A stretch of 64,000 nt of DNA from NCBI GenBank assembly GCA_037131245.1, contig JBAXRK010000001.1:152385-216384 (forward strand), given 5' to 3'. This DNA comes from Candidatus Omnitrophota bacterium (GTDB taxonomy: Bacteria; Omnitrophota; Gorgyraeia; Zapsychrales; Fredricksoniimonadaceae). A program made the translations under genes and the position numbers. A model generated the notes under the pieces. The model saw only the letters and a list, made by a program, of their open reading frames with translations, was not told the origin of the DNA and did not search any database. Shown one piece after another: positions 12,328-58,925 of this stretch. Position 1 is the first letter of the stretch. Each line of letters opens with the position of its first letter.

Positions 12328-13063
<736 letters not shown>

Positions 13064-36701: not shown

Positions 36702-36712
36702 ATCATTTCCCT

Positions 36713-37426: not shown

Positions 37427-37444
37427 ATATTATCCCTTTCAAGT

Positions 37445-38715: not shown

Positions 38716-38719
38716 GGGA

Positions 38720-40420: not shown

Positions 40421-40426
40421 GCGTTC

Positions 40427-41029: not shown

Positions 41030-41044
41030 TCTTTCACCTGAGAA

Positions 41045-41224
41045 TTAGGCCGCCTGAGCGTCCGGTCTACCCAATAAGAAATACAACACCGCGCCGATCG
41101 CCGGGACGGAGAGGATCACGACCGCCCACAAGATCTTCTTCACTAACGATGTCCTCAACTTTAACAGATCAACAATGGCCACCACATCGATCACAACAAT
41201 AAGTCCGAAAATTAATGTTTCCAT
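41045..41224 (-). CDS. Small two-TM protein of PLD-nuclease-N-terminal (PLDc_N) type
   Basis: I prefer the start METLIFGL (ATG 41224), preceded by a G-run and AGCTTC. ...ILWAVVILSVPAIGAVLYFLLGRP is the family signature. Confidence 0.6.
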   Translation of the reverse strand: METLIFGLIVVIDVVAIVDLLKLRTSLVKKILWAVVILSVPAIGAVLYFLLGRPDAQAA

Positions 41225-41230
41225 GAAGCT

Positions 41231-41241
41231 CCCCCCCCCCC
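41231..41241 (-). repeat. Homopolymer tract (11 G on the coding strand) serving as or overlapping the RBS of the small PLDc_N-type gene
   Basis: The plus strand shows 11 consecutive C, 6 nt upstream of the ATG at 41224. Confidence 0.85.
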
Positions 41242-41268
41242 GTTTTGTACTGTTTATTACCATTCTAG

Positions 41269-41316
41269 GTCTCAAAGGTCTGTCCTTTGAAAAACCCATG
41301 TAAGTCTCAAAAGTCT
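41269..41316. promoter_or_regulatory. Direct repeat GTCTCAAARGTCT x2 in the 89-nt gap (candidate operator / internal promoter)
   Basis: 41269..41281 gtctcaaaggtct and 41304..41316 gtctcaaaagtct. The minus strand also offers TTCAAA-18 nt-TAGAAT overlapping the first copy. Confidence 0.4.
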
Positions 41317-41330
41317 CGTAACCCCCATGC

Positions 41331-42359: not shown

Positions 42360-42377
42360 GATATAAAGTCCCCTTTT

Positions 42378-44180: not shown

Positions 44181-44195
44181 GAGACTCGTCCTTGT

Positions 44196-45017
44196 TTACT
44201 TTGCCGCGTTGACTTTTACGTTATCCATCGGGCCGGTGGGCATGGGTTCATTCTGCTGCTCCACCTGCTCGCGGTTACCGGCATTCGACAAACCGGGCTC
44301 GCGATAATCGATCGTGGCGTTCTTATCAAGATCCCCGTCGACCACCGCGTAATGGAACATGTTCTCGCGATAGCCGAAGACATAAGCATAAATACAACCC
44401 GGGATCTCTTTAACAGCAGCGTGGAAAATACTCGCCGCTTTGTTATATTCCATGCGGCTATCCGCAATACGGTTTTCGCTAATGATCAACGCGTTCATCA
44501 GGTCCTGGAAATTCGCGCTGAGCTTGAGGTCCGGATAGGCTTCGGCGACCGCGAGCAATTTGGTCATCGCGCTCTTGAACAGCTCGGGCTTGACCTTGTC
44601 GAAATCAGCGATACCGTTGGCCTTGAGCGCCTCAAGGACCATTTCCGACTTGCCCGAATTACCCGCGCGGGAATCAGCCATATATTTATACATCATCCGC
44701 TCATGCTCGGCATAAGCCAGCACCATGCGCGCCAGATTCGACGCCAGGTTACGCCGGCGCTGCAACTGCACCTCGATCTGATGCTGCTCCATGTCGGTAA
44801 AACGCGACAGGTTAACGAACTTATTGTAGTAATAGATGCCGGGCAGAATGATCACGACCGCGATCACGATCCCCCACACGCCCTCTTTGGTTTGCAGGTT
44901 ATTAAAGTCGATCTTCTCCCACCAATGCTTGCCGACGGGCCGCAGCTCGCCCAGCTCGCTGGGGAAAAGTTTTTTCATTGATTCGGATATCATGCTCATG
45001 ACTTCGATCTCCTGCAA
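44196..45017 (-). CDS. mamQ: LemA-family protein (MamQ-like)
   Basis: Single TM WGIVIAVVIILPGIYYY. QLQRRRNLASNLARMV, AYPDLKLSANFQDLMNALIISENRIADSRMEYNKAASIFHAAVKEIPG. Confidence 0.8.
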   Translation of the reverse strand: MQEIEVMSMISESMKKLFPSELGELRPVGKHWWEKIDFNNLQTKEGVWGIVIAVVIILPGIYYYNKFVNLSRFTDMEQHQIEVQLQRRRNLASNLARMVLAYAEHERMMYKYMADSRAGNSGKSEMVLEALKANGIADFDKVKPELFKSAMTKLLAVAEAYPDLKLSANFQDLMNALIISENRIADSRMEYNKAASIFHAAVKEIPGCIYAYVFGYRENMFHYAVVDGDLDKNATIDYREPGLSNAGNREQVEQQNEPMPTGPMDNVKVNAAK

Positions 45018-45033
45018 AACAAGTTAATAGCGC

Positions 45034-45858
45034 TTAATGACCCGCGCGCTTCTGCCCGCGCTCGAGGTCCATGGCTTTCTTAAAACAAACGATGGCATCA
45101 TTATGATTGCCGTTGCTCTCATAGAGGAACCCGAGCGCCTGGTAATACACCGCCTGGCGGGGCTCGACGTCGATCGCTTTCTTATAAAACTTCTTGGCTT
45201 CTTCCACATTCTCGGTCTTTTCGTAGCAGGTACCGAGATGATAATAACTATCAGCGTGCTCGTCATTAACTTCAATAGCCTTGAGAAGATAGGGGATCGC
45301 CTCCGCATACTCTTCAAGCACCACCAGGCAATCGCCAAGCTCGGTAATGATGTTCACGTCATTCTTGTCGAGCTTCTCGGCTTTTTTCAAATATTCAACG
45401 GCTTCCTTATGCTCTTCCATGTTCTTATGGCACATCGCCAGCATATAAAGAACGTCGACGTCGCCCGGATTCTCTTCGTCAAAAAGAAGGAACGCGTGCT
45501 GGGACTTCTCAAAATCGCCTTTTTCAAAATACTTATACCCCTGGTCCTTATTGAAAGACGCCTGGGTCTGCTCGGGCGCCACGAAAACGCTCTGGTAGGC
45601 GTTCGACAGTCCGTTAATGATGCGCTCGGCGGTTGACAGGGTCACATTGGTAGCCACTTTGAAATGATGGCCGATATCAGGAACCTTCTCGGCTCTGGCT
45701 TTTTTGGTCACCCGGGGATGACGGCGAACGGGCTTTTCCGCGGCGTCGGCAGCATCATCCGCTTCTTCAACCAACGTGCCCGCGTCGAGGTCACTCGACG
45801 TATCGGCCTCTTTGACCGCGTCTTCATTGTGTCTTTTGTGTTTCTTTAATTCTTCCAT
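45034..45858 (-). CDS. mamA: TPR-repeat protein (MamA-like) with acidic N-terminal extension
   Basis: Five or so 34-residue repeats from about aa 100 (e.g. AVEYLKKAEKLDKNDV, AIPYLLKAIEVNDEHADSYYHLGTCY, AKKFYKKAIDVEPRQAVYYQALGFLY). Confidence 0.75.
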   Translation of the reverse strand: MEELKKHKRHNEDAVKEADTSSDLDAGTLVEEADDAADAAEKPVRRHPRVTKKARAEKVPDIGHHFKVATNVTLSTAERIINGLSNAYQSVFVAPEQTQASFNKDQGYKYFEKGDFEKSQHAFLLFDEENPGDVDVLYMLAMCHKNMEEHKEAVEYLKKAEKLDKNDVNIITELGDCLVVLEEYAEAIPYLLKAIEVNDEHADSYYHLGTCYEKTENVEEAKKFYKKAIDVEPRQAVYYQALGFLYESNGNHNDAIVCFKKAMDLERGQKRAGH

Positions 45859-45872
45859 ATTCCCTCTTTTGA

Positions 45873-46784
45873 TTATTTCCTTGCCGCAGCCAGCGCAAGG
45901 GCCTTAGGAGTTAAATTTTCCTTACACGTGAACGCGACCGTCACTTCCTTGATCTGCGCGTATTTACGCATCAGGGCCTGACGGACTTCACGGGCGATCG
46001 CATGGCCTTCCTTGACCGTCCGTTTCGGGTCAATAATGATCTCAAGGTCGACCCAGGCATGCTGCCCCACGCGACGGGCATGGACATAATTAACGCCCAT
46101 CACCTGGCGGTACTTCATGACTTCCGCCTCGATGACCTTTTCCTTATCGCCGGGCAGGGCTTCATCGATGAGGTTCTTGAACGACTGCAACCCCAGCGTG
46201 ACCGCCGACTTGCCGATCATCAGGCCAACGAAGATCGCCGCCAGCGCGTCTATAATAGGAAAACCGATATTGGCCGCGAAAACGCCGAACAACACCGCGA
46301 TACTTGAAAGCATGTCGGAGCGGTTCTCCTGGGCATTCGCGATCATCGCCGGTGAATTCAGTTTTCTGCCCACGCAAAAGCCGTAAGACGACAAAATGAA
46401 GTTCGCCAGGATCGCGACCAAAGCCGCGAAGAACGCCGCCATGTGGGGCGCCTTGATCTCGCCGCTCACAATGACCGCGATGGCGTCGATCAGGATCATG
46501 CATGAAATACCAAAGAGCAGAATATACGCGAAAACCGCGCCGATGAATTCCGATTTGCCCAGGCCCCAGGGATATTTCTTATCATCCCGGTGGCTGGAGA
46601 GCTTGACCGTGATGATGACCATGAGCGTCGTCGCCACGTCGGTACCGCTGTGAAACCCGTCAGCCACCAGACCCTTCGACTTGGCGGCATAACCGATATA
46701 GATCTGAAAGATCGCAAGCGTCAAATTCCCAAGGAGGACGATCCAGGGAACGATCTTGCCGCATTTAACGCAACGTTCTTGCAT
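45873..46784 (-). CDS. mamB: Cation diffusion facilitator, MamB-like
   Basis: N-terminal CVKC, TM2 ADGFHSGTD, YPWGLGKSEF, TM5 NAQENRSD (compare the MamB NAWDNRSD as I recall it), CDF C-terminal fold. Confidence 0.8.
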   Translation of the reverse strand: MQERCVKCGKIVPWIVLLGNLTLAIFQIYIGYAAKSKGLVADGFHSGTDVATTLMVIITVKLSSHRDDKKYPWGLGKSEFIGAVFAYILLFGISCMILIDAIAVIVSGEIKAPHMAAFFAALVAILANFILSSYGFCVGRKLNSPAMIANAQENRSDMLSSIAVLFGVFAANIGFPIIDALAAIFVGLMIGKSAVTLGLQSFKNLIDEALPGDKEKVIEAEVMKYRQVMGVNYVHARRVGQHAWVDLEIIIDPKRTVKEGHAIAREVRQALMRKYAQIKEVTVAFTCKENLTPKALALAAARK

Positions 46785-46787
46785 AAA

Positions 46788-47687
46788 TTATTCCGCCGGA
46801 AAATCCTGAATAAAGATATTACCGATGTACTTATCTTCGCTTCTAAGCAAAGCCCGGACCGACTGATTGATGTGCTTGGCCTCAACAACACTGAGCTCGG
46901 GGCTAAGCTGCAACCCGATATCGAGTACGATCTGCCGCCCTGTCTGGCGCGCCCGAACGTGTTTGATCTTGGCGATCCCCTTTACCGTCTCGACCGTGCG
47001 GTGGATCTTCTCCAGGTACTCCTCGGGCAGGTTCGTATCAACGATGCCTTTAAGCCCGCTTTTGAGGATCTCAAAACTGGCATGCAAAACGTGTGCGCAC
47101 TCGAAGATCGCGATGACCGGGTCCACCCAGTGCAACCCCATGCGGGTCACGACCACGCCGATCGCGACCAGGAGCGATGAAATAACGTCGATCTTGTTAT
47201 GTTCCGCGTGCGCTTTTAAGGAAGGGCTGTTAAGCTCCTGCCCGCTGCAATGCGAAAATTTATAAATGAACGCGCTGATGGTGGCCGACAGGATCGCCAC
47301 GAAAAACACCACCGAGTGCTGGACCACAAAGGTGCGCTTGGCCAGAACAATGAAAGAGCTCAAGATCAGCGCCAGCGTACCCAGGATCATGATGACGCTC
47401 ATCACGACTTGCGCGATGAACTCGATCTTGCCGTAGCCGTAAGGGTAGCGGTGATCGGCCGGCTTCTTGGAATACTTGACGCCGATAATGACTACGATCG
47501 AAGAAAGAACGTCACTCAAATTACAAAGCCCGCTGCCGATGAGCGCGCGGCTGCGGCCCATGAACCCCACGAACAACTTGAACGCCGCCAGGAACAGATT
47601 CGCGATAATGCCCGCGAAGATCGTCTTGCGCGCGCAAGCCTCGCATTTCTGTGAATTCTTTTTCTTTGGCTCGTTATTTGACGACAT
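46788..47687 (-). CDS. mamM: Cation diffusion facilitator, MamM-like
   Basis: N-terminal CEAC, TM2 GSGLCNLSD, YPYGYGKIEF, TM5 HAEHNKID, CDF C-terminal fold. Immediately upstream of the MamB-like gene. Confidence 0.75.
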   Translation of the reverse strand: MSSNNEPKKKNSQKCEACARKTIFAGIIANLFLAAFKLFVGFMGRSRALIGSGLCNLSDVLSSIVVIIGVKYSKKPADHRYPYGYGKIEFIAQVVMSVIMILGTLALILSSFIVLAKRTFVVQHSVVFFVAILSATISAFIYKFSHCSGQELNSPSLKAHAEHNKIDVISSLLVAIGVVVTRMGLHWVDPVIAIFECAHVLHASFEILKSGLKGIVDTNLPEEYLEKIHRTVETVKGIAKIKHVRARQTGRQIVLDIGLQLSPELSVVEAKHINQSVRALLRSEDKYIGNIFIQDFPAE

Positions 47688-47962
47688 TACGCCTCATCTT
47701 CGAACAACTCGCCATCATCCTCTTCCGCCGCCACCGCCTTGGCCTTGCGGTTCATCCTTGACCCGAAATGGACCATCATCCAGAACATATTGCTGGCGCC
47801 AATGACATAAGAGACGGCAATAATAATGATCAGCCCGCACTGGCGGCCCTTGAAGAACGGGATCCAGATCCTGACCGGGTCAAGGTTCTCAAAAACGAAC
47901 ATCCCCATGAACAGGGCGGCCAGCAGGAAAGCGATGATCTTAAGTATCAGTTTGATGTTCAT
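47687..47962 (-). CDS. Small membrane protein, LapA-domain-like, acidic tail
   Basis: Two TM helices with the FENLDPVRIWIPFF loop; tail EEDDGELFEDEA. Confidence 0.5.
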   Translation of the reverse strand: MNIKLILKIIAFLLAALFMGMFVFENLDPVRIWIPFFKGRQCGLIIIIAVSYVIGASNMFWMMVHFGSRMNRKAKAVAAEEDDGELFEDEA

Positions 47963-49155
47963 AGCGCCGGTTTCAAGATGATATGACAGTTATTGCATTT
48001 GCCCCGGAATTCATGGGGAGCAACCGCGCCTTTAGTGATCGGCGGCGGCGTGGGCAAAATATCGCCCGCGTCCGTGGGAAGCTGGCCGCCGGTGATCATG
48101 ATGATATGACAGGCCGTGCACGGCTTACCCTGCTGGCGCTTGCGATGGGGCGCGAGCGCGCCGGGCTTGATCGGCTGGGCCGCTTCATTCTGCGAAAAGC
48201 CCAGCGTTCGGTCGGAAACAAACGTGAATTCCATCATCCGCCCGCGGCGGTTAACCTGCACCCGGGCCTTTTTGGCATTCTTGACCCGGCGGGTCGCCTC
48301 GGTGAACGCCGCGAGGTCAGGTGTGGAAAAATGTTCAACGCCGATCACCATGTCGCCGGCCAGAATTCCGGACTCGGCAGACTCAAGCGAAATCTCGTCG
48401 ACCAGCAAACCCTTCGTGTCGGGCGCGATGCCGAATTCTTTAGCCAACTCAGGTACCAATGGAATAAGCTCCATGCCCAGCCAATGGCCTTCAACAAGTT
48501 CTTTATGCGCCGCGCCCTGTTCTTTGGGCGAAGGAAGCATGATGGTCGGAGCCCGGCGGTTTACAACGGGCGCTGCCGCGGCACCGGCTTCCTGGACCAG
48601 CGCGACCGGGGCCAAGGCCGCGTCACCAAAAGTCGTTTCCTTCATCGCGACCGGCGCGCCTTCCGTCGTCTGAGCAACGGGCGTGGCCAGGCCATGGCCG
48701 GTCGTACCCGGATCGATATTAAGCATTTTCTTCATCGTATCGTGCATGCTGCCGGTGCTCTGCATCGTAATGAACAAGGGCTGGCCTTGACGGAGAATAT
48801 CAAGAAGAACGCCGTTACTGACATCGGTGACCTTGGTCACTTTAAGAAAATCATTGATCGTAAGCGTCGGCTTATTGTTGATCGATTTAATAACGTCGCC
48901 GCCGCGCACGCCCGACGCGAATGCCGGGTCTTCACACCAGTTGACCACCACGCCCTTCTCGTCTTTGGGAATGCTGAACTCCATCTGCAGCGCCGGCGTC
49001 ATGTTCGACACCGTCATGCCCGACCACTCGGCGTCGCCCGCCCCGATGTGCATGAGCGCGGCCGTGATAAAGAGGCCCAAAATGATGAGCAGGGTCAAGA
49101 GCAAACCCCTCTTCATTTTTTTATAGCGGTATTCCTGTAATTGCGGCTCAAGCAT
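47959..49155 (-). CDS. TM + two PDZ + two magnetochrome motifs (MamP / MamE-C-terminal-like)
   Basis: PDZ1 WSGMTVSNMTPALQMEF...GDVIKSINN. PDZ2 WLGMELIPLVPELAKEFGI...GDMVIGVEH. PCTACH and HEFRGKCNNCH. Confidence 0.85.
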   Translation of the reverse strand: MLEPQLQEYRYKKMKRGLLLTLLIILGLFITAALMHIGAGDAEWSGMTVSNMTPALQMEFSIPKDEKGVVVNWCEDPAFASGVRGGDVIKSINNKPTLTINDFLKVTKVTDVSNGVLLDILRQGQPLFITMQSTGSMHDTMKKMLNIDPGTTGHGLATPVAQTTEGAPVAMKETTFGDAALAPVALVQEAGAAAAPVVNRRAPTIMLPSPKEQGAAHKELVEGHWLGMELIPLVPELAKEFGIAPDTKGLLVDEISLESAESGILAGDMVIGVEHFSTPDLAAFTEATRRVKNAKKARVQVNRRGRMMEFTFVSDRTLGFSQNEAAQPIKPGALAPHRKRQQGKPCTACHIIMITGGQLPTDAGDILPTPPPITKGAVAPHEFRGKCNNCHIILKPAL

Positions 49156-49167
49156 AGATCCTGTTCT

Positions 49168-49431
49168 TTACTCTTTGGCGATCGTTTTGGGATTAAGGTT
49201 GATGTGTTCGACGCCGACATTACATTCTTTGCAAACCCAGAGCTCGCGCTTGGCGGTGCTCATGTAAATACCGATAATGACCAGCGGAATACCCACCACC
49301 ATACCGACCCAGAACAGGGTCATCAGGATACCGGCCAGGATAATGAACCCGGCGGCCTTGCGGTTATAACGCGGACCGTTAAAAAGCTGCATTTCACCGT
49401 TACAATGTGAGCACTTGATCGCTTTAGCCAT
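49168..49431 (-). CDS. Membrane protein with split zinc ribbon
   Basis: CSHC...(two TM helices)...CKEC. 87 aa. Confidence 0.55.
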   Translation of the reverse strand: MAKAIKCSHCNGEMQLFNGPRYNRKAAGFIILAGILMTLFWVGMVVGIPLVIIGIYMSTAKRELWVCKECNVGVEHINLNPKTIAKE

Positions 49432-49440
49432 ATACTCCTC

Positions 49441-49674
49441 TTAATTTTTTCCCGCGATCAGGTCGTCGATCGCTTTTTCTTTGTCCGCGTCAAAAACTTC
49501 GGTCGTTTGTTCGGTCTGCACCGGACGGGACGACTTCACCAAGGGTGCGCTTTTCACTTCAGGTGTTGCTTCGGCCTTCGGGGCTTTGTCTTTTTTATTT
49601 TTACCCGTGACTGATAATCCAATGCCTAACGCTGCTGCAATAACCGTGAATGCCCAAATGGACAGTGGCTCCAT
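49441..49674 (-). CDS. Small single-TM protein
   Basis: 77 aa. TM IWAFTVIAAALGIGLSV followed by a charged tail. Confidence 0.5.
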   Translation of the reverse strand: MEPLSIWAFTVIAAALGIGLSVTGKNKKDKAPKAEATPEVKSAPLVKSSRPVQTEQTTEVFDADKEKAIDDLIAGKN

Positions 49675-49686
49675 ATGTACCTCTCT

Positions 49687-51300
49687 TTATTTGATCGCCA
49701 TGTGGGCGACGTTCGGATCCTGCATGCCATTATTCTGCGCGACTTCATTCTCGACGGCCTGTTGCTGCATTGGAACATTCTGCATCGCCACGGGTTGAGC
49801 CTGTACTGCCTGCGCCGGCGCGATCTGATGGCAATTGGAACAAACACCGCGATAAGCGTGCGGCATCGTCGCATTAGCGGCGATCGTGATATCAGGTTTT
49901 ACCGTATGACAATTTTCGCAAACACCCCGGAACTGGTGAGGCATCACCGCATCGCGAAAGATCGGCGGAGCACTGTTAGGCACGGGATTCGCCACCGGAG
50001 CGTTTTGGACCATGGCGATCCGCGACGCCGGATTGACCCGCTTCATGATCTGCCCGCAATTGGGACAACGCGGAAATTCATTCATGCCCTGCTCGGAATG
50101 CATCAACCAACCGCAATTGGGACATTTAAAACCATTGGTCATGTCCGGATTCGGGCTGAAAAAATTCGCCTGAGTGCCCATCATCATGGCCTGCTGACCC
50201 ATGGCCTGCTGAGCCATCGCTTGCTGAGCCATCGCTTGCTGACCGAAGGCCTGATTCTGCATCTGCATTTCCGGCTGTTCAACGAACGGGTTCACGAGAC
50301 GATTCTGATTCTGGGCCTGCATATCAAGCGCCATCGACCCGCCGCAATTCGGGCACTGTGGAAACCCATCGCCTTGCTGGCTACTTTTCATGCGCCAGTT
50401 ACAGATAGGACAAACATACGCCCGCTGGCCCCAACCGAACCAGCCGGCTTGCATTGCTCCCGCGCCCCCCTGGGCCATGGCTTGCTGTTGGGCCAACTGC
50501 TGCTGAAGGATCTGCTGCTGATACAAATAACCCGGGCCGTTGCCGTTATGAAGCATGCCGATGCCTTGAAAACCACCGGGGAGAGGACAAGTCGGTTGCT
50601 GAGCCTGCATCATATAATTCATCGGCATATTCTGCATGCCCATGCCTTGCTGCATCATATTTCCCTGCATGCCCATCGGCATATTCGCTGCCATCCCGCC
50701 GCCCATCCCCCCTACGGGGGCCATGCCTTGCATCTGCATTTGCTGTTGAACAGGAATTTGCTGGGCTTGCCCGGGCATCGGAGAGGCCGGAATTCTCGCC
50801 TGACGATATAAACTGATCACTTTCTGCGCCCGGCCCTGATACCCGCCGAACACCCTGATGCCGAACTGCGAAAGCGTATTGTAGGTCTGCTGATCCACAC
50901 TGCCGACGATGACCGCTTCCTCGCCCTTGCTGGCGATCAAATACGTCATCTGCTGGCTGGGCCCCTGGCCGAAATAAGGGTTCTTAACCACTTCCATCAA
51001 TTTCTTGTTGAGCGGATTGACGACCAGAAAATAACGGGCCTCGGACAAGGTCGGCGCGACAGGCGCCGCCAGCGAACGGCCGCCGGTCGCGATAACGATC
51101 ATCCCGCAAGCCGGGTTACCTTTGGCCGTGCCGGTCGATTCCGCCGAGAACAGGGCATATGTCCCGACGATCAAGATGAGCACGATCGCGGAAAAAATGA
51201 AGATAACGTTCAGGTCGGTATCCTTGAACCGTTCTTCGACCTTTGCCAGGATCGACTTAAGATCAATATTGAACGCGGCGCCCTCAGACTTCTTAGCCAT
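49687..51300 (-). CDS. Mosaic protein: TM + NifX/NafY-like domain + Met/Gln-rich low-complexity region + two zinc ribbons + two magnetochromes
   Basis: LSEARYFLVVN...AVIVGSVDQQTYNTLSQFGIRVF. aa 171-380 are Q/M/G-rich with QQAMAQQAMAQQAMGQQAM. CPIC..CPNC and CPNC..CPNC. HQFRGVCENCH and HAYRGVCSNCH. Confidence 0.8.
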   Translation of the reverse strand: MAKKSEGAAFNIDLKSILAKVEERFKDTDLNVIFIFSAIVLILIVGTYALFSAESTGTAKGNPACGMIVIATGGRSLAAPVAPTLSEARYFLVVNPLNKKLMEVVKNPYFGQGPSQQMTYLIASKGEEAVIVGSVDQQTYNTLSQFGIRVFGGYQGRAQKVISLYRQARIPASPMPGQAQQIPVQQQMQMQGMAPVGGMGGGMAANMPMGMQGNMMQQGMGMQNMPMNYMMQAQQPTCPLPGGFQGIGMLHNGNGPGYLYQQQILQQQLAQQQAMAQGGAGAMQAGWFGWGQRAYVCPICNWRMKSSQQGDGFPQCPNCGGSMALDMQAQNQNRLVNPFVEQPEMQMQNQAFGQQAMAQQAMAQQAMGQQAMMMGTQANFFSPNPDMTNGFKCPNCGWLMHSEQGMNEFPRCPNCGQIMKRVNPASRIAMVQNAPVANPVPNSAPPIFRDAVMPHQFRGVCENCHTVKPDITIAANATMPHAYRGVCSNCHQIAPAQAVQAQPVAMQNVPMQQQAVENEVAQNNGMQDPNVAHMAIK

Positions 51301-51312
51301 ACCCCATCTCCA

Positions 51313-51930
51313 TTATTTAACGACCGGACCGTACTGGAACGCCTGCCCCAACACCGGTGAACCTAATTGCCATGTCCCCTTGTTCGGCCCGAACAGCGGA
51401 CCATACTGATATTCAAAAGGGACCGTGATATATAAATTTTCTTTACCGCGGAACACGTCGAGCAGAATGCCGTTGGTAAAACGCGTATTCTGCGCCGCGT
51501 CCACAAACTCGCGGCTGTTACGCACCGGATGGCGGTTAAGCGACACGATCACGTCGCCCATCTTGACGCCGTTGCGGAACGCTTCCTGCGTGCCCTGATC
51601 GACCACGAACATCCCCTTGATACGGCCGGGGATCTTGAATTCCTTGCGCAGCATCGGCGACACCGGCGCGATCTCCATGCCCAGCCACACCAGCGTATCG
51701 GTCTTTTTAAAGACCTGCGGCTTCTGCGCTTTCATCTCGGCCGTTTCCGGCAGCACTTCGGTCGCCCTTAAATACTCAACGCCCCAGGTCAATGTCAAAA
51801 TAACACCCGTCACGATCGCCGCCAGCACCCAGGGTTTCTCGCGCGCGAATTCCACCGTTTGCTTGATGACCTTCTGCCAAGGAGCAAACTCTTTTTCCGC
51901 CGCCTTGTGGTGTGTTTTTTTCTGTGTCAT
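51313..51930 (-). CDS. Membrane-anchored single-PDZ protein
   Basis: TM WVLAAIVTGVILTLTWGV. PDZ WLGMEIAPVSPMLRKEFKIPGRIKGMFVVD...GDVIVSLNR. Confidence 0.7.
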   Translation of the reverse strand: MTQKKTHHKAAEKEFAPWQKVIKQTVEFAREKPWVLAAIVTGVILTLTWGVEYLRATEVLPETAEMKAQKPQVFKKTDTLVWLGMEIAPVSPMLRKEFKIPGRIKGMFVVDQGTQEAFRNGVKMGDVIVSLNRHPVRNSREFVDAAQNTRFTNGILLDVFRGKENLYITVPFEYQYGPLFGPNKGTWQLGSPVLGQAFQYGPVVK

Positions 51931-53324
51931 TGCAACCTCACCAGGACTTCGTCGTACTTGCCGTTGCGGTAGATCCGCACGTTCACATTATCGCCCGCCT
52001 TGAAATGGGTCACGACCTTCGGGATATCATTGGTCTCCACGATCGGCACACCGGCGACCGACATCACGATGTCGCCGCGCATGATGCCGGCCATCGCCGC
52101 GGGAGAACCGTCAAGGATCCGATTGACCAGCACGCCCTGACCGAGCGGAATACCATACTGCTTGGAAATAATAGGATCGACCGCCATGACTTCGATACCG
52201 AAATGCACCGGCACCGGGCCCTGCTGTAAATGGCTGAACTTGGTGAGCGCCACATTGACCATACCCTTCTGATCGAGGGGAACGGTATAGCTCTTGCCAA
52301 GGTTAGCCGATAAGAAATCTTTGCAATTATTGATGGGAATAGCGAAACCCGTGCCGCTGAACACGCCGGTCGGCGCGTAGATGGCGGTATTGATCCCGAT
52401 GACCTCGCCCTTCATATTGACCAGCGGACCACCGGATGAGCCGCGGTTAATGGACGCGTCGGTCTGGAACAGATCTTTGTAGCGGACGCCATCAATGACC
52501 ATCGATTTGCGGTTGCCGCTGATAATACCGCTGGTGACCGTCTGCTCGATCCCGAAGGGGCTGCCCACCGCCACCACATAATCGCCCACCTGGGTCCAGC
52601 TGGAATCGCCAATTTTGGCTTCCGGGAAAAGAACATCCGCGCCCGTGATCTTGAGGATCGCCAGGTCCGAATTCGCATCCTGCGCCACGATCTGGGCCGG
52701 ATAATCGCGCGCGGGCGAACCGAACACGGTAACCATGATGTCGGTGGCGTCCTGCGTCACATGATAATTCGTCAGGATATAGCCGCGCTCGTCAACAAAA
52801 ACACCGCTGCCGATCCGTTCAAAACCTTTATTGGCAATAAATTTATCGATCACGCCATCGAAAGGCGGCACGAACTTGAGATTCTGCGCATCGGGTACCA
52901 CTTTGCGCGGAGCACGCACAACCCGTTGAGCGTGAATATCGCAGACGGTCGGAATAATGCCGTTGACCGCATCCTTAAGCGAATTCTGAAAACCGCCGGC
53001 ATTGTCAACCTGCTGAGCAACCAACTGCATACCGCCATTAGGCGTGGCCTTGGTAAGCGCCGCGCGCGCGTAGTTAGGATCGTTCCACTGAGCGGCAGGT
53101 GGCGTGACAGTCGCGGCAGGCATAACACCCTTAGGGAATGAAGGCTCGCCTTGGATCGGAGACGTCACCTTGGGAGGCTCGGGTGTTTCCAGTTCTAACG
53201 GAATGAAGATCTCGTTCCGTTTGAGAACGACCCACATGACCGACATGACCGAAACGCCAATAAGCCCGTAAACCCAGGGCTTGATCGACTGATTACAAAA
53301 TTCGTCATTGTGATCTTGAGGCAT
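51927..53324 (-). CDS. mamE: HtrA/DegP-type serine protease with one PDZ (MamE-like protease part)
   Basis: TM VYGLIGVSVMSVMWVVL. Triad contexts ILTNYHV, SDLAILKI, GSSGGPLVN. C-terminal PDZ. No CXXCH in this polypeptide. Confidence 0.85.
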   Translation of the reverse strand: MPQDHNDEFCNQSIKPWVYGLIGVSVMSVMWVVLKRNEIFIPLELETPEPPKVTSPIQGEPSFPKGVMPAATVTPPAAQWNDPNYARAALTKATPNGGMQLVAQQVDNAGGFQNSLKDAVNGIIPTVCDIHAQRVVRAPRKVVPDAQNLKFVPPFDGVIDKFIANKGFERIGSGVFVDERGYILTNYHVTQDATDIMVTVFGSPARDYPAQIVAQDANSDLAILKITGADVLFPEAKIGDSSWTQVGDYVVAVGSPFGIEQTVTSGIISGNRKSMVIDGVRYKDLFQTDASINRGSSGGPLVNMKGEVIGINTAIYAPTGVFSGTGFAIPINNCKDFLSANLGKSYTVPLDQKGMVNVALTKFSHLQQGPVPVHFGIEVMAVDPIISKQYGIPLGQGVLVNRILDGSPAAMAGIMRGDIVMSVAGVPIVETNDIPKVVTHFKAGDNVNVRIYRNGKYDEVLVRLQ

Positions 53325-53348
53325 TCTCTTCTAGCTCCGCTTCATTTC

Positions 53349-53567
53349 TTAAAAAAGGACTTTACCATCTGCTGTTGTCCCGGCCACAGGAGTGGCTGGA
53401 ACCGTATGCATCGTGCCCTGCGCCACCGGCTTGGGATGCTTCCTGGCCCGCTTACGCGCGCTGCCCTTGGTCTCAAAGAAAACCGCACCCGCGATCACGA
53501 TACAAACGATCAGGATGACCAGGTAACCGATCCAGGGACTAAAGCATTTATCGCTTCTGCCGATCAT
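53349..53567 (-). CDS. Small single-TM protein with basic tail
   Basis: 72 aa. TM WIGYLVILIVCIVIAGAVFF followed by a K/R/P-rich tail. Confidence 0.5.
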   Translation of the reverse strand: MIGRSDKCFSPWIGYLVILIVCIVIAGAVFFETKGSARKRARKHPKPVAQGTMHTVPATPVAGTTADGKVLF

Positions 53568-53579
53568 ATAAACCTCTTA

Positions 53580-53750
53580 TTACTTCTTTTCTTTGAGGAA
53601 TTTCAAACCCGTGTTAACCGCAATCAAACCGCCGATGAAGATCGCCAGGGGCATGCTGCCGCGCAGGAAATCGCCGAAATTATCCCACCAGCCGATGATA
53701 CCGATAATACCCAGAACTGCCGCGATCGAACCTCCGATAATGTGAACCAT
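53580..53750 (-). CDS. mamI: MamI-like small two-TM protein (56 aa), below ORF-track cutoff
   Basis: Hand translation: MVHIIGGSIAAVLGIIGIIGWWDNFGDFLRGSMPLAIFIGGLIAVNTGLKFLKEKK. The G-x-x-G-W-W ... F-L-R-G ... P pattern matches my recollection of MamI. AAGGAAAGGGGA lies upstream of the ATG. Confidence 0.65.
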   Translation of the reverse strand: MVHIIGGSIAAVLGIIGIIGWWDNFGDFLRGSMPLAIFIGGLIAVNTGLKFLKEKK

Positions 53751-53779
53751 GTGATTCCCCTTTCCTTGCGTTTATTAGA

Positions 53780-54157
53780 TTAAACTTTTTTCTCGCTACC
53801 CGGCTTAACCATCTTATGGGCAAAAGCCGCGATGACCTTACCTGATGCGAAAGCACCCCTTGAAACCATGCTATCGATCTTGGCCTTCTGTTTAACCAGA
53901 AAAGCGCCAACCACAGCCGGCTCTTTAACCGCCTCAACTGCCTTTTGGACAGCATTGGGCACAAGGTCAACAGCCGCCTGATCGCTGCTATGACTCTTTT
54001 TAACTAAGTCTAATACTGCTTTACGGGGGATGCGTTGATGGCCGCCAAGGGTGGCGGTGGATTCAAGTTTATGCTTCTTGACCCAGTTAAGAACGGTGAA
54101 ACGGGTGACGTGACAGATCTTGGCGGCTTCAGTAGTTGTTAAGTAATCGGTATGCAT
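53780..54157 (-). CDS. Excisionase/MerR-type HTH regulator, first gene of the cluster
   Basis: YLTTTEAAKICHVTRFTVLNWVKKHKLESTATLGGHQRI is paralogous to the HTH at 39909..40340. Confidence 0.7.
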   Translation of the reverse strand: MHTDYLTTTEAAKICHVTRFTVLNWVKKHKLESTATLGGHQRIPRKAVLDLVKKSHSSDQAAVDLVPNAVQKAVEAVKEPAVVGAFLVKQKAKIDSMVSRGAFASGKVIAAFAHKMVKPGSEKKV

Positions 54158-54217
54158 TCTTGCTGAGCCCTAAGTGGTTATCAATTAAACAATTAAGTGA
54201 GCGTTTTAAGATTTTCG

Positions 54218-54246
54218 AAGTATAAAGATTTGATAAAATTATGTCA
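54218..54246 (-). promoter_or_regulatory. Strong sigma70-type promoter candidate for the mam-like operon
   Basis: Minus strand reads TTGACAtaattttatcaaatcttTATACT (17-nt spacer) inside a 268-nt AT-rich gap, about 60 nt upstream of the ATG at 54157. Confidence 0.6.
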
Positions 54247-54425
54247 AGAAAACTTTATGGGGTGCCCCGGAATTTAAAAAGAGGAAATTGTTAAAATGGT
54301 TGAAGCCTTTAGAAGATAAAAATATTGATATTTTATCGACGGGACCAAAAGGAGGGGTCAACAGAAAGGAAAAGAAATGTTAGACAAGACAAACAATGGA
54401 TGGGGTGAGTAAAAGAGTGCGGCTG

Positions 54426-55397
54426 TTAGAAAACATTGAAATTGTTGAATCCGTCCGTTCGCAACTGGCGGATCGTGCCATCAACATTTTCAATGATCAG
54501 CGCTTCAACGTTTTCAACCATTCGCGCGAACGCTAATGCTTTCTCACCACCCATCACGCATAGCGCAGTTGACAGCTCATTGGCCGCTTGAGTGTTATTC
54601 GCAATGACCGTAACACTGGCCGCGCCGGTTTGCGGATACCCGGTCCTAGGATCAATAATATGGGCATAGCGAGTACCATCAATTGTTGAAAACTTCTCAT
54701 AATCACCGGATGTCGAGACCCCTTTGCCATCCAGTTTGATGTCCATCAGAACGCTTTCCTTATTAAAGGGATCCTGAATGCCGACTTTCCAGGGGAATTC
54801 AGCTTTATTAAGGCCGCGGGCGAAGATCTCCCCGCCGCCATCGACCATAAAGTGTTCTATTCCATATGTTTGCATAATTAGAGCCACTTCATCACAGAAG
54901 TAGCCGGAGGCGGGGCTGCCGAGGTCGATCATCATGCCCTGCTTTAAGAATTTGACTTTATCCGGCTCAAATTGTTGAAAATGTTGAAATCCGACTTTAC
55001 TTTTGGCGATCTCAAGGGAGTCTTTATCCGGCAGGCGGTTCTTGGCGGCGGCATTTTTCCATATCTTGACCAAAGGATAGATGGTCATATCGTAGGCGCC
55101 ATCGGTCAGTTGTGCGTATTTCAAGGATTGCTTCAGGATCTTGAACAGATCCGGATGGACCCGGGCGCCTTCAAAGCCAAGCTCATTGAGCCAGCTTAAA
55201 TTGCCTTCTTTCAGGCCCGCGTGAACATTCAAATTCTGCTGAATGCTCTCGGCTTTCTGCCAGATCGCCCTTGCGGCGCCGGCCATATCCACCCCGTCCC
55301 TATAGAAACAATGGGCCCAGATCGTGGTTCCGAAGTAAGGGCGAATCTCGTAGTATTCCTTCAAAATTGTTGAAATTGTGGAATCCTTTGCGGGCAT
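54426..55397 (-). CDS. apbE: FAD:protein FMN transferase (ApbE family)
   Basis: YFGTTIWAHCFY..., GAYDMTIYPLVKIW, MMIDLGSPASGYFCDEV, GGGEIFARG, VSTSGDYEKF...YAHIIDPRTGYP. No obvious signal peptide. Confidence 0.85.
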   Translation of the reverse strand: MPAKDSTISTILKEYYEIRPYFGTTIWAHCFYRDGVDMAGAARAIWQKAESIQQNLNVHAGLKEGNLSWLNELGFEGARVHPDLFKILKQSLKYAQLTDGAYDMTIYPLVKIWKNAAAKNRLPDKDSLEIAKSKVGFQHFQQFEPDKVKFLKQGMMIDLGSPASGYFCDEVALIMQTYGIEHFMVDGGGEIFARGLNKAEFPWKVGIQDPFNKESVLMDIKLDGKGVSTSGDYEKFSTIDGTRYAHIIDPRTGYPQTGAASVTVIANNTQAANELSTALCVMGGEKALAFARMVENVEALIIENVDGTIRQLRTDGFNNFNVF

Positions 55398-55457
55398 TCG
55401 TTAGTGTTGGGTCGATGCAGTCATCCGATGGCGAGGGGATATTGTCAGCTGCGAGTT

Positions 55458-55497
55458 CACGGCCATCCTTCAACTCTATTAGAAAGGGATGGCCGTG
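55458..55497. other. 11-bp perfect inverted repeat (hairpin) between the ion-channel gene and apbE
   Basis: CACGGCCATCC-18 nt-GGATGGCCGTG. No U-tract on the minus strand. Confidence 0.3.
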
Positions 55498-55546
55498 CTG
55501 TCTGAGCAGACGATAATATCCCCGAAGCCAAGCGGATGACCCAAGT

Positions 55547-56314
55547 TCAATATCTCAAATACTTCCTGCAGAGCCCGGTCAAATACAATGGGATCGTGAA
55601 TATCCCGATAAAGGCCTGAATGGTGGCCACGATCTTGGCCCCGCCTACCGGGGTGATGTTCTCAACGCCAACCCTGGTATAGCTGCTAAAGCTGAAGTAG
55701 AACGCCTGGGCAAAAGTCGGGGAAATAATAGTGCCGTCCTTATTAAGATGGCCAAGCATATAGCCAGCCGCACAAATAAGGATCAGGACCAACCCGAACC
55801 CCACTGTACGATGCGGGCGCTCCCCATGTCCCCATATAAGAGAAGCGAAGGTCAAGGTAAGGAGCGGCACGATACGTTTGCTAAAGAAAGCCAGGTTAAA
55901 GCCGATGGCCACATTTTCCTTGGTCTTTTTGGTGCGAAAAAGGTCCTGGACCAGAAAACGGCGATAGGCCTCCTTGGACTTAAAAAGGCACTCTGAAAGG
56001 GAAATATTGTCATGGTCCCGCTCATAAGCGACCGCGGCATACTTATAAAGCATGGAAGCATATTCCAGGTCTTTGCAGGCTTCGGCCTCGAGTGCGGCTT
56101 CCTCATATAAGCCGGCCACGCGATGGTAGGTCTTTTCCCCCAAAATAAGGGCCCGGCTGCTGGCGGAGGCGGCCAAACAAATAGCGGCCCGGTCATGCTT
56201 ATCCTGCCTTTGAAAAGCCTTGGCGGCCTGCAAATAACGCTCACCGGCTTCCGCGTACTTCTCTTCGCCTAATAGTTCGTGGGCTTCCTGTTCAAGGGTC
56301 TTTTTATCCGACAT
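55547..56314 (-). CDS. Ion-channel protein (two-TM pore domain) with N-terminal helical-repeat domain
   Basis: C-terminal FAQAFYFSFSSYTRVGVENITPVGGAKIVATIQAFIGIF resembles a K-channel pore helix and filter. Confidence 0.6.
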   Translation of the reverse strand: MSDKKTLEQEAHELLGEEKYAEAGERYLQAAKAFQRQDKHDRAAICLAASASSRALILGEKTYHRVAGLYEEAALEAEACKDLEYASMLYKYAAVAYERDHDNISLSECLFKSKEAYRRFLVQDLFRTKKTKENVAIGFNLAFFSKRIVPLLTLTFASLIWGHGERPHRTVGFGLVLILICAAGYMLGHLNKDGTIISPTFAQAFYFSFSSYTRVGVENITPVGGAKIVATIQAFIGIFTIPLYLTGLCRKYLRY

Positions 56315-56315
56315 A

Positions 56316-56648
56316 TTAGAAGCTCCTTAAGGCCTCTTGATGGCTTTCGAAGATCTTGAACAACTTATGGACCTTGGTGATCTCAAAGACATTCACGATC
56401 TTTTTATTCACATGGCACAGGCAAGCCCGGGCATTCACCTTGCCCAGGTTCTGGCAAACCTCGATCAAAGCCGCGATCCCCGAACTGTCAATAAAGGGCA
56501 CCTTGGCAAAATCGATAATGACCTTGGCATTGCGCTCCTTAAGGATCGCCTTGAAGGTCTCCTTGAACTTGTGGGTGCTTTCCATATTAAGCTCCCCATC
56601 AAGGACAATAAGCTGGATATCATTGATCTTTTCTAATTTAATGTCCAC
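56316..56648 (-). CDS. STAS-domain anti-sigma-factor antagonist (RsbV/SpoIIAA-like)
   Basis: 110 aa. ...IIDFAKVPFIDSSGIAALIEV... with the conserved phospho-serine context. Confidence 0.8.
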   Translation of the reverse strand: MDIKLEKINDIQLIVLDGELNMESTHKFKETFKAILKERNAKVIIDFAKVPFIDSSGIAALIEVCQNLGKVNARACLCHVNKKIVNVFEITKVHKLFKIFESHQEALRSF

Positions 56649-57057
56649 CGGTCCTGCCTCCCTTAAGCTTCATGACCATACGGATCGTACGGCCCCCGTT
56701 CAAAAATGCAACCTCATCCATGGTCTGGCGGATCAGATAAATGCCCCGGCCATGGCCTTTGCCAATATTTTCAGCCGCGGTCGGATCCGGCACCGCATTA
56801 ACATCGAACCCTTTGCCCTGATCGGCCACTTCGATCATGATCTGCTGCGGATCGGCCACGATCGAACAATGAACGGTCAGCGCCTTATTATCCTGATGAC
56901 CATGGCGGATCGCATTGATCAGCGCTTCCTGCAAACAAAGCTGTAAACCAAAAACCGCGTCCTCATTGAGTTTTAGGGGCCCAAGCTGTTTGAGCCAGCC
57001 CTTGATCGCGCCGGGCACTAGTTCCACATCTGAAGGCAGCCGGGCATCAATGGTCAT
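56638..57057 (-). CDS. Anti-sigma regulatory Ser/Thr kinase (RsbW/SpoIIAB-like, HATPase_c)
   Basis: QEALINAIRHG (N-box), DQGKGFD, GHGRGIYLI. Confidence 0.8.
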   Translation of the reverse strand: MTIDARLPSDVELVPGAIKGWLKQLGPLKLNEDAVFGLQLCLQEALINAIRHGHQDNKALTVHCSIVADPQQIMIEVADQGKGFDVNAVPDPTAAENIGKGHGRGIYLIRQTMDEVAFLNGGRTIRMVMKLKGGRTGGH

Positions 57058-58925
57058 TTTATCTTTACCACAACAATGGTGATATCGTCCTGTTGCCTGG
57101 GCTTGCCGCGGAATCGGGCCACATCCTCAATGATCGTGGTCAGGATCTGCCGGGCATCCAGATTGCGATGCCGCTCGACCAGTGCGGTGAGGCGCTCGAC
57201 TCCATACATCTCGCCCCGGGCATCGGCCGCTTCCGTCACGCCGTCCGTATAATAAATAAAGATGTCCTCGAGGTCAAATTTTTTCTCCCCACCCGTATAT
57301 TCGCCTTTCATCATGCCTAAAGGCAGGCCGTCCGTCACGTCCAGCGAAACGCCCGGCTGACCTTTGGCGACATGCAGCACTGGCATATGCCCGGCATTAG
57401 CGTAGAGCATGACCCGGCGCTTCATATCGAACAAAGAATAATAAGCAGTCACAAAACGGCCGGAGGCGTTCTCCGCCAAAAGCTTTTCATTAAGGTCCAG
57501 CAGCGTTTTCTGCGGCAGCACATCGGGTTTAGCAAAAAACCGGAACGCGCTCACCGCCATGCCCATGAACAAACTGGCGGAAAAGCCCTTGCCCATCACA
57601 TCCCCCACCATCACGCCCGCGATATCATCATTGAACTTATCGACCGTATAAAGATCGCCGCCCACTTCGCGCGCGGTCAGCATCATCGCGCCAATATCCA
57701 GGCCTTTGATCTCGGGCAGCGTGACCGGAATAAAACTTTCCTGCACCTGCTTGGCCAGGCGGAATTCATTATCGAGGATGATCTTTTCCTTAAAATGCAA
57801 AATAGAGCGGTACAGGATACAAATAACATAAAACCCGGCGCACACCAGAAGCGGATAATACATATCGAGCCAAAGCCCAAGCTTGTTGAAGACCATCACG
57901 CTGATGACCGCGAACACGGCCATGATCTCCAGGAGCATCCCGAAAGCATGTGAAGGCGTGGCCTTGATCGAGACCACCGCCACCAGCGCGCACAGCACGA
58001 GCAGAATGGCCAGGTTCAGCCCCCGGGACGCCCGGGCGATATATTTCTGATTAATGATCGAATTAAAAACATCGGCGTGAATACCGATGGACGGGTACAG
58101 CGGCTCGAGCGGGCTGGGATGAAGGTCGGTCGTCCCGTCGGCGGTAAGGCCTACCAGGCAAACCTTGCCTTTGAAGATGTTCAGGTCCAGGATGGTTTCT
58201 TTGCCCGCCGCCGATGCCTCCAGGATCTCCGCGTAAGAGTAATGATCGAACGAGTCCGCCCATTTTCCGGCGAAGTTCACGATCAAATTCCCGCTCTCAT
58301 CGAGCGGGATCTTATCCTTGCTTAAGTCGCGCTTAAGAAAATCCGCGCTCACCTGATACGCGATGGATGGGTATTTCGTCCCCTGATATTCGATGAACAG
58401 CGGGACCCGGCGAAACTTTCCGTCGATGTCGGGGATGACATTAATGTAACCCAGCGCCTTCGCGGCGCGGGCCAGCCCTTCTTGATTCTGCGACAAAATG
58501 CTTAGCGCGCGGGCACCCCGGCCTTCGGCCGCCGGCGCCAGTTCAAAAACATAAGGCAGATACACATTGCCGGCCAAGCGCATGGCGAGCTTGAACGCAT
58601 CGTCGCTGGCCTGCGGTTCACTAAAGAACATATCAAAGACCACCGCTTTAGCGCCGGCTTTGGAAAGCGCCTCAACCAGTTTGGCATGATAACCCCGGTC
58701 TATGGGGAAACGGCCGTATTTTTTGATGGTGTCATTATCGATCTCAACGATGACCACCTTGTCGGTGCGTTCAATGGAAGAGCGCAAGCGGAAACGCAGG
58801 TCAAGCGTATCAAGCTCGTTCTTTTCAAAGACACGGAGGTACGACCCGCCGGCGATCAGCGCGGTGGCGACGATAAGAACGAGAACCAGTATTTTTTCTT
58901 TGTAGTGAGCCGTCATATTAAACAA
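57054..58925 (-). CDS. CHASE2 sensor domain - membrane - PP2C/SpoIIE phosphatase (RsbU-like)
   Basis: N-terminal CHASE2 (VVIVEIDNDTIKKYGRFPIDRGYHAKLV), several TMs, C-terminal GGDLY...GDVMGKG...YTDGVTEA. Confidence 0.8.
   Translation of the reverse strand: MFNMTAHYKEKILVLVLIVATALIAGGSYLRVFEKNELDTLDLRFRLRSSIERTDKVVIVEIDNDTIKKYGRFPIDRGYHAKLVEALSKAGAKAVVFDMFFSEPQASDDAFKLAMRLAGNVYLPYVFELAPAAEGRGARALSILSQNQEGLARAAKALGYINVIPDIDGKFRRVPLFIEYQGTKYPSIAYQVSADFLKRDLSKDKIPLDESGNLIVNFAGKWADSFDHYSYAEILEASAAGKETILDLNIFKGKVCLVGLTADGTTDLHPSPLEPLYPSIGIHADVFNSIINQKYIARASRGLNLAILLVLCALVAVVSIKATPSHAFGMLLEIMAVFAVISVMVFNKLGLWLDMYYPLLVCAGFYVICILYRSILHFKEKIILDNEFRLAKQVQESFIPVTLPEIKGLDIGAMMLTAREVGGDLYTVDKFNDDIAGVMVGDVMGKGFSASLFMGMAVSAFRFFAKPDVLPQKTLLDLNEKLLAENASGRFVTAYYSLFDMKRRVMLYANAGHMPVLHVAKGQPGVSLDVTDGLPLGMMKGEYTGGEKKFDLEDIFIYYTDGVTEAADARGEMYGVERLTALVERHRNLDARQILTTIIEDVARFRGKPRQQDDITIVVVKIK

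Follow-up and report, generated by a model that had tools for sequence, protein, structure and literature searches.

Two BldC-like helix-turn-helix proteins as candidate regulators at the heads of magnetosome gene modules in an Omnitrophota bacterium

Little is understood about what turns on the expression of magnetosome gene clusters, and a 64,000-nucleotide stretch of Candidatus Omnitrophota bacterium (GenBank assembly GCA_037131245.1, contig JBAXRK010000001.1, positions 152,385 to 216,384), called the window in the following, carries on its minus strand a magnetosome gene cluster in which two small genes for helix-turn-helix (HTH) proteins, HTH1 and HTH2, each precede a series of other genes. 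Do these proteins control the modules which they head? The regulators shown to act in Magnetospirillum (Fnr, NsrR, Crp, OxyR-like and Fur) are global and are not known to be encoded within the clusters. The magnetosome operons of Magnetospirillum have been described as mostly constitutively expressed (PMC8547445). In a literature search no description of a cluster-encoded magnetosome regulator was encountered, and no account of these Omnitrophota HTH genes or of the DNA repeats close to them, the key single-cell paper of 2016 not being covered in this latter case. From a comparison with 13 related Omnitrophota loci (L-numbers in the following), we consider it fairly probable that HTH1 and HTH2 are BldC-like regulators which were recruited in magnetotactic Omnitrophota to the head position of one magnetosome module each, and which bind TTCAAC arrays. 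With them, good candidates for regulators whose genes lie within a magnetosome gene cluster are available for the first time. They offer directly testable parts, namely two small proteins and a pair of DNA fragments shorter than 300 bp, which are relevant for understanding regulation in deep-branching uncultured magnetotactic bacteria and for the engineering of foreign clusters in tractable hosts.

The two genes and the modules behind them are located as follows.

53780..54157, minus strand: HTH1, 125 aa, contains TTTEAAKICHVTRFTVLNWV, Pfam HTH_17
40427..53750, minus strand: Module 1, 17 mam-like genes behind HTH1, from domain and profile matches
39909..40328 (open reading frame extends to 40340), minus strand: HTH2, 139 aa from the MKEY start, contains STVEAAKVCNVTRFSVINWT, HTH_17 match
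32915..39908, minus strand: Module 2, 9 genes behind HTH2, from domain matches

Module 1 codes for MamI, a small membrane protein, MamE, PDZ proteins, two magnetochrome proteins, two CDF transporters (MamM/B-like), MamA (TPR), MamQ (LemA), PDZ-CitMHS, TauE and PLDc_N proteins and one more PDZ protein, and Module 2 for NifX-like, zinc-ribbon, NapH-like 4Fe-4S, PDZ and magnetochrome proteins, two CDF proteins, a PAS protein and a CDF-NifX protein. Intergenic gaps amount to at most 31 nt throughout Module 1 and to at most 48 nt when both modules are taken together, and there are only two large gaps, of 268 nt ahead of HTH1 and of 98 nt ahead of HTH2. Two units were defined on the basis of this tight packing and the two large gaps. 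The gap ahead of HTH1 (54158..54425) has a guanine-plus-cytosine content of 35.1%, compared to 54.5% for the window, and is AT-rich as initially described. No HTH_17 copies other than HTH1 and HTH2 are present in the window. A preliminary description of this DNA had proposed that each mam-like transcription unit is headed by an excisionase-type HTH gene; this applies to both mam-like modules, and is conserved across metagenome-assembled genomes (MAGs) of Omnitrophota, but not to the remaining part of the cluster (about 8.9-31 kb), where no HTH_17 gene was detected and Fur, DtxR-FeoA and DUF134 regulators are encoded instead.

Judged from their sequences, HTH1 and HTH2 are paralogous BldC-like proteins, predicted to bind DNA, of the MerR superfamily of winged HTH proteins. 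Both exceeded the cut-off of 27 bits for HTH_17 (PF12728), with 38.1 bits for HTH1 and 33.7 bits for HTH2, and the cut-off of 28.8 bits for TIGR01764, with 40.3 and 32.5 bits, respectively, and their HTH regions are 52% identical over 50 aa (E 4e-18). The earlier assignments of the first gene as HTH_17-like and of the second unit as opening with a paralogous HTH that has a Cys/His-rich tail are therefore correct. In HTH1 the BldC-like winged HTH (residues ~5-54) is followed by a variable linker and a conserved C-terminal motif GAFxSGK(Y/V)IAA, and in HTH2 it is followed by the Cys/His-rich tail with a seven-cysteine domain (Cys7; ~39954..40103). The true start of HTH2 is probably at 40328 and not at 40340, since the orthologs begin with MKEY and GGGGGAG precedes that codon. 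The best match in the PDB for a family profile of HTH1 was BldC (6AMA/6AMK, E 1.3e-7), and the profile of HTH2 found an HTH-plus-B12-binding protein first and BldC next. In an AlphaFold model of HTH2 built on 74 sequences, the HTH domain (pLDDT ~90) superimposed best on BldC chains (TM 0.81-0.88, root-mean-square deviation 1.0-1.9 Å), followed by Pukovnik Xis, RacA, NmlR, SoxR and CarH as structural neighbours, and no long helix follows the HTH, which corresponds to a MerR-like winged HTH fold lacking the coiled-coil dimerisation helix. Like BldC of Streptomyces (6AMA, 6AMK; NF033787), both are small MerR-like winged HTH proteins with a GGHRR wing.

Also, the positions of both genes at the heads of their modules are conserved. 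Relatives of HTH1, 19 proteins with 36-75% identity, were found in Omnitrophota only, and nine MAG loci share the order ApbE, a gap of 104-320 nt, HTH1, optionally FixC/FixX, MamI, small membrane protein and MamE. The orthologs of HTH2 are better conserved (57-88% identity), and in L005-L007, L009 and L010 HTH2 heads the series NifX-Zn ribbon-NapH-PDZ-MCR-CDF-CDF, with PAS added where the locus reaches that far; a sixth HTH2 locus, L008, stops shortly past HTH2. Module 2 is not found downstream of Module 1 in L004, L007 and L009, and in L007 and L009 HTH2 is still the first gene, indicating that the HTH gene travels with its module. FixC/FixX-like genes (ETF-QO type) lie between HTH1 and mamI in L001 (10450..12077), L004 (10419..12013) and L087 (6377..7992), and none are present in the window. 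Heme-biosynthesis genes were observed behind the MamP-like gene in L001 and L004.

In the region ahead of HTH1 and in the neighbouring gene apbE, a promoter and five repeat pairs were located.

54219..54247, minus strand: P_HTH1, near-consensus sigma-70-type promoter TTGACA-17-TATACT, 11/12 positions matched
54287..54304, minus strand: promoter-proximal 9-bp direct-repeat pair TTCAACCAT-TTTAACAAT, consensus TTCAACAAT twice, phased as AATTTCAAC
54426..55397, minus strand: apbE (flavin transferase family), Pfam ApbE, E 7.6e-69, syntenic with the cluster head
54432..54449, minus strand: TTCAAC pair at the extreme 3' end of apbE, encodes FNNFNVF
54504..54521, plus strand: TTCAAC pair in inverted orientation within the 3' part of apbE
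54971..54988, minus strand: TTCAAC pair in mid-apbE, encodes FQHFQQF, window only
55366..55383, minus strand: TTCAAC pair at the 5' end of apbE, encodes STISTIL in a reading frame unlike that of the other sites

P_HTH1 is present on the minus strand as had been claimed, although its position had been given as 54246..54218, which is off by one base. It was the sole site with more than 9/12 matches among 20 promoter-like sites in 38000..57000, and an equivalent, TTGAC(A/T/C)-16..18-TA(T/C)A(C/A/T)T (10-12 of the 12 positions matched), was found in all nine orthologous gaps. In seven of these nine loci, 31-39 nt separate the end of the repeat pair TTCAACAAT-TTCAACAAT from the -35 element downstream of it; L001 has a distance of 18 nt and L007 one of about 48 nt. 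When up to three mismatches were allowed in the 18-mer, five matches were obtained in the window, compared to 0.05 expected, all of them in 54287..55383, and a control scan of unrelated loci gave three matches in 1.15 Mb. Among the orthologs, the promoter-proximal site is kept 100-215 nt ahead of the HTH1 ATG, a site at or just ahead of the apbE start is kept in L001, L002 and L085-L088, and the inverted site near the 3' end of apbE is found at -288 to -373 from HTH1 in L002, L085, L086 and L088. Within apbE one and the same DNA motif is read as three different peptides (STISTIL, FQHFQQF and FNNFNVF), which argues for selection on the DNA and not on the protein. The apbE gene may belong to the same regulon as the cluster. 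A search of both HTH upstream gaps against Rfam (E up to 1) revealed no known RNA element except for one irrelevant weak match.

BldC is a MerR-like winged HTH protein which binds to 9-bp direct repeats AATTxxxx(C) and forms head-to-tail cooperative multimers of 2 to 4 or more protomers (PMC5859096). The candidate repeats conserved in Omnitrophota match the 9-bp geometry of the BldC sites, AATTTCAAC fits the consensus AATTxxxxC, and the regular 9-bp spacing and variable copy number agree with a binding mode of this kind.

Ahead of HTH2 two elements were located.

40386..40420, minus strand: intrinsic-terminator-like hairpin with T7, 10-bp stem at 40420..40396, -15.3 kcal/mol
40347..40381, minus strand: array of 3-4 tandem 9-bp units GTWGAAWWW, ends ~20 nt ahead of the HTH2 start

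The hairpin with its T run (40420..40386) is the top terminator-like site of the region, in agreement with the terminator previously noted ahead of the second unit, and a T run (T7-8) about 10 nt before the array is kept in seven of seven loci, even where Module 2 stands alone. The tandem repeat that had been reported in 40341..40389 was found again as ACTTATTC, of which the plus strand has two copies (40360..40367 and 40369..40376) that follow each other with a period of 9 bp. The HTH2 array occurs once in the window (0.00 expected) and is located at -37 to -53 in all six orthologs. On the plus strand it reads WWW-TTCWAC and has the core and the 9-bp period of the HTH1 sites in the opposite orientation. 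The pattern TTCAAC-N3-TTCAAC, with at most one mismatch, had seven matches in the window, compared to 0.37 expected, six of them in the two HTH upstream zones, and a three-unit TTCAAC pattern had five matches, compared to 0.18 expected, all of them in these zones. In L005 (10640..10700) the whole element of T run and array is duplicated in a 294-nt gap between HTH2 and the NifX-like gene; it is therefore associated with gene starts and is not a mere terminator tail. A TTCAAC match at 18639..18653 and another one inside an AhbA-like open reading frame of L005 were set aside as due to chance or to the encoded peptide. In L007 (~9850..10010) and L009 (~9830..10000), which have a stand-alone Module 2, HTH2 is preceded at a distance of about 150 nt by a near-consensus promoter (TTGACT-17-TAGAAT and TTGACA-17-TATATT, respectively), behind which come a small hairpin, the T run and the array.

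The seven cysteines of the HTH2 tail (C76, C91-x2-C94, C104, C118-x3-C122-x2-C125) are invariant across 74 diverse family members, with a family spacing of C-x12-17-CxxC-x9-C-x12-18-CxxxCxxC, and the histidines of the tail are conserved within Omnitrophota only. For the Cys7 domain no match was obtained in Pfam, NCBIfam or the PDB. Its cysteine pattern suggests that it is most likely a metal or Fe-S site, and metal or redox sensing by it is plausible; the original proposal of metal- or redox-sensing control was overstated, as its basis consists of the seven invariant cysteines of a domain without relatives in these three databases. An exhaustive profile search with HTH2 returned 2,551 relatives at E <1e-3, with well over 100 full-length clusters at 50% identity, and a second search of the HTH-Cys7 family returned 1,440 clusters at 90% identity. 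By profile similarity, the family spans about 1,400 such 90%-identity clusters from Omnitrophota, Desulfobacterota, Zixibacteria and Latescibacteria, all of them unannotated, as the relatives are labelled merely 'helix-turn-helix' or 'excisionase family'; relatives with a named source come from MAGs of Omnitrophota, Deltaproteobacteria, Zixibacteria, Latescibacteria and Pseudomonadota. Proteins with the Cys7 domain form a large family of putative sensors in anaerobes which has so far gone unannotated and of which most members are encoded outside magnetosome clusters. In some relatives the Cys7 module is present in two or three copies, or a receiver-like domain follows it, and a Pfam search of longer members detected the HTH alone, plus an occasional receiver or nucleotidyltransferase/HEPN domain.

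HTH1 has no Cys7 domain and ends with the conserved basic motif G(A/L)(F/Y)xSGKY(I/L)A, for which the roles considered below are candidate roles. The same motif closes HTH-Cys7 proteins of other organisms (P0047, P0049, P0052, P0057, P0059 and P0189), which makes HTH1 and HTH2 resemble the two halves of a single ancestral architecture. Membership of the HTH-Cys7 genes of Latescibacteria and Desulfobacterota in magnetosome clusters was rejected because their gene contexts are unrelated, and, as the HTH-Cys7 genes outside Omnitrophota are not in magnetosome clusters, the cluster copy is a lineage-specific recruitment. In Desulfobacterota, L011 (2637..6915) and L092 (6522..10846) share one non-magnetosome context, consisting of genes for a small membrane protein, an MBL-fold hydrolase, HTH-Cys7, a metallophosphatase, a radical SAM protein and a HAD hydrolase. 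A third Omnitrophota paralog, with two Cys7 domains, is encoded in L090 (3665..4249; same MAG as L010) and in L089 (8001..8579). In L090 it adjoins actin-like (Volactin), trypsin, NifX-like and NapH-like genes, and in both loci it has a conserved motif of its own, AAATTGTATAAAA, just behind a TTGACA-17 promoter, after the -10 element.

Like HTH2, the MerR-family sensors SoxR, CueR, CadR and NmlR carry at their N-terminus a winged HTH that belongs to the same superfamily. They are structural neighbours, and SoxR, CueR and CadR have in addition a C-terminal Cys-based metal or Fe-S sensor. In contrast to these sensors, the HTH2 model lacks a long coiled-coil dimerisation helix. Spacers are of 16-18 nt in all nine loci, and not of 19-20 nt as for classical MerR, and the repeats are direct and outside the P_HTH1 spacer instead of forming a palindrome within it. 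The SoxR motif is CX2CXCX5C, and the pattern of the Cys7 domain is different.

We infer that HTH1 and HTH2 would bind to the tandem 9-bp direct repeats as head-to-tail multimers, as BldC does, and that their recognition helices, VTRFTVLNW in HTH1 and VTRFSVINW in HTH2 (VTRF(T/S)V(L/I)NW), would read a common core W3-TTCAAC; the near identity of the helices agrees with the core motif shared by both groups of sites. At Module 1, the repeat pair upstream of the -35 element and the copies bracketing apbE could serve for upstream activation, or else could have an architectural role or form DNA loops. The oppositely oriented array of Module 2, between the T run of the terminator and the ribosome-binding site, is in a position suitable for auto-repression or for a roadblock. 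By means of its Cys7 domain, HTH2 would make the expression of the redox/iron module (NifX-like, NapH-like, magnetochrome and CDF) dependent on iron or on the redox state. Going further, we raise as a tentative possibility that HTH_17-Cys7 proteins might constitute a class of one-component regulators which is both new and widespread, and in which a BldC-type filament-forming HTH is combined with a seven-cysteine Fe-S or metal sensor not described before; HTH2 would gate the iron/redox module according to iron or redox state, the Cys-less HTH1 would nucleate on the TTCAAC arrays near apbE and near the main promoter, and its SGKY tail might couple expression to the membrane or the organelle. If this holds true, the two proteins would form the first dedicated, cluster-encoded control circuit of a bacterial magnetic organelle.

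Several points weigh against a BldC-like control of the two modules. The whole analysis is comparative and was performed in silico, and all the organisms concerned are uncultured. Against the NCBIfam model for BldC (NF033787), HTH1 and HTH2 obtained 33.3 and 34.9 bits, respectively, and are therefore far below the cut-off of 77 bits for membership. Furthermore, BldC is a single 68-aa domain without an effector domain and a global developmental regulator, whereas HTH1 (125 aa) and HTH2 (139 aa) are extended at their C-termini, by the SGKY motif or by Cys7, and are apparently cluster-specific. For these reasons the two proteins, for which we propose a BldC-like working mode, are not considered to be BldC. 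The arginine of the TVTRW sequence of BldC aligns to an asparagine (VLNW in HTH1, VINW in HTH2), and base contacts must therefore differ. A promoter with 11/12 matches, such as P_HTH1, should hardly need an activator. At HTH2, no better promoter was found than the weak TTTACC-17-TAGAAT at 40392..40364 (9/12), which overlaps the array; an arrangement with both the -35 and the -10 element within the 9-bp array was rejected because its geometry does not fit. The earlier view of the cluster as two regulator-led operons is thus well supported in silico by the head positions, the promoter and the repeats, but much less so with regard to initiation at HTH2. As the strong promoter of L007 and L009 is located upstream of the hairpin and T run, the array may be part of a leader that is transcribed and contains a conditional terminator; such a leader may be attenuator-like, and the matching region of the window has no Rfam family. 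With regard to sensing, sites that bind only zinc and are structural would fit the Cys7 domain equally well. A model of the HTH2 tail from a 17-sequence alignment had a pLDDT below 50 and was unusable, and in the 74-sequence model the Cys7 region reached a moderate pLDDT of 66-78, with no fold match in the PDB beyond the HTH.

Among the alternatives, the one that survives best, although we regard it as rather unlikely, is that the HTH proteins are accessory magnetosome proteins like MamR or DNA-architectural tethers of the Xis/RacA type, in which the HTH and the SGKY motif would provide attachment to the organelle or membrane or would arrange the DNA around the cluster, the repeats being architectural. 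In Magnetospirillum, mamAB codes for MamR, an HTH_17/Xis-like protein of 72 aa (PMC3905215). MamR localises to magnetosomes and controls crystal size, and a role as transcription factor has not been shown for it (PMC11628618). The initial statement that classical mamAB operons of Magnetospirillum lack a dedicated transcription factor was therefore inexact, even though MamR is not proven to be one; its example shows that an HTH_17 protein from such a cluster may be associated with the organelle and need not control transcription. Xis and RacA are structural neighbours of the HTH2 model, the basic C-terminal motif of HTH1 is conserved and common to other family members, and the five sites distributed over 1.1 kb around apbE resemble a nucleoprotein array more than a single operator. 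Also, like MamR, HTH1 and HTH2 are small HTH_17/Xis-like proteins inside a magnetosome cluster, and both match the NCBIfam model for MamR (NF040990) weakly. However, this similarity is limited to the HTH region, and with scores of 13.1 and 13.9 bits, compared to an equivalog cut-off of 100, an orthology with MamR was rejected. The domain order is different, as the HTH is C-terminal in the MamR profile (positions 43-88 of 91), and HTH1 and HTH2 are encoded at module heads. The mamR gene is located in mid-operon, between mamQ and mamB. Occurrence of mamR has been reported from Alpha- and Gammaproteobacteria only (PMC9840458). Sites at fixed distances from a conserved promoter and directly ahead of gene starts form a pattern that is typical of transcriptional control.

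Other putative regulators are encoded in or beside the cluster, or next to its head.

31405..31878, plus strand: Fur
34006..34914, minus strand: PAS protein
32099..32929, plus strand: Bro-N domain protein (phage-type)
30928..31242, minus strand: DUF134, first gene of an RND efflux unit
18956..19708, minus strand: DtxR-FeoA fusion
55547..58925, minus strand: partner-switching module (CHASE2-SpoIIE phosphatase, RsbW-like kinase, STAS protein) and ion-channel gene

The promoter and the repeats might thus be real and be read by a different regulator, such as Fur, DtxR-FeoA or the partner-switching module, with the HTH genes being the first cargo or regulating only themselves, an explanation that we judge unlikely. 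Fur, DtxR-FeoA, DUF134 and PAS proteins are encoded in the cluster, and a factor other than the HTH proteins could bind the repeats. The CHASE2-SpoIIE/RsbW/STAS module keeps its synteny with the head of the cluster throughout the loci; together with the ion-channel gene and apbE it was found there in 9/9 Omnitrophota MAGs examined, and this module may be an additional regulatory layer. Also, the pairing of the HTH proteins with the repeats is a prediction. The geometry of 9-bp direct repeats, on the other hand, is a signature of BldC and would not fit Fur and DtxR operators, which are inverted repeats. Moreover, the repeats strictly co-occur with the two HTH genes, both in the window and in the orthologs, and TTCAAC arrays are absent upstream of the non-cluster family members L011 and L012.

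Phage excisionases and those of integrative and conjugative elements (lambda/Pukovnik Xis, RdfS) share the fold and the TIGR01764 domain with HTH1 and HTH2, and Xis binds direct repeats as filaments, too. A derivation of the two genes from a mobile magnetosome island, of which they would be remnants with an original function as excisionase (recombination directionality factor), is nevertheless very improbable: the database names 'excisionase family', the match to TIGR01764, the phage-type Bro-N gene at 32099..32929 and the known horizontal transfer of magnetosome islands are outweighed by the absence of any integrase, recombinase or transposase domain from the long open reading frames of the window, all of which were searched, and of partner integrase or att sites seen in the window, by flanks that are conserved, non-mobile chromosomal genes in nine MAGs, by the conservation of both HTH genes (57-88% identity for HTH2), each with an extra conserved C-terminal part, and by the location of one of them between two modules, where an island-end factor cannot be.

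The rest of the cluster (~8.9-31 kb) contains the DUF134 gene with RND efflux genes, FeoB, FecR-domain, DtxR-FeoA, HEAT-repeat and ParA-like genes and two actin-like genes. Two features belong to its far end.

8929..11463, minus strand: two adjacent actin-like genes, Pfam Volactin, E ~1e-79
12305..13063: ParA-like ATPase

The actin-like pair and the ParA-like ATPase are probably chain-positioning genes.

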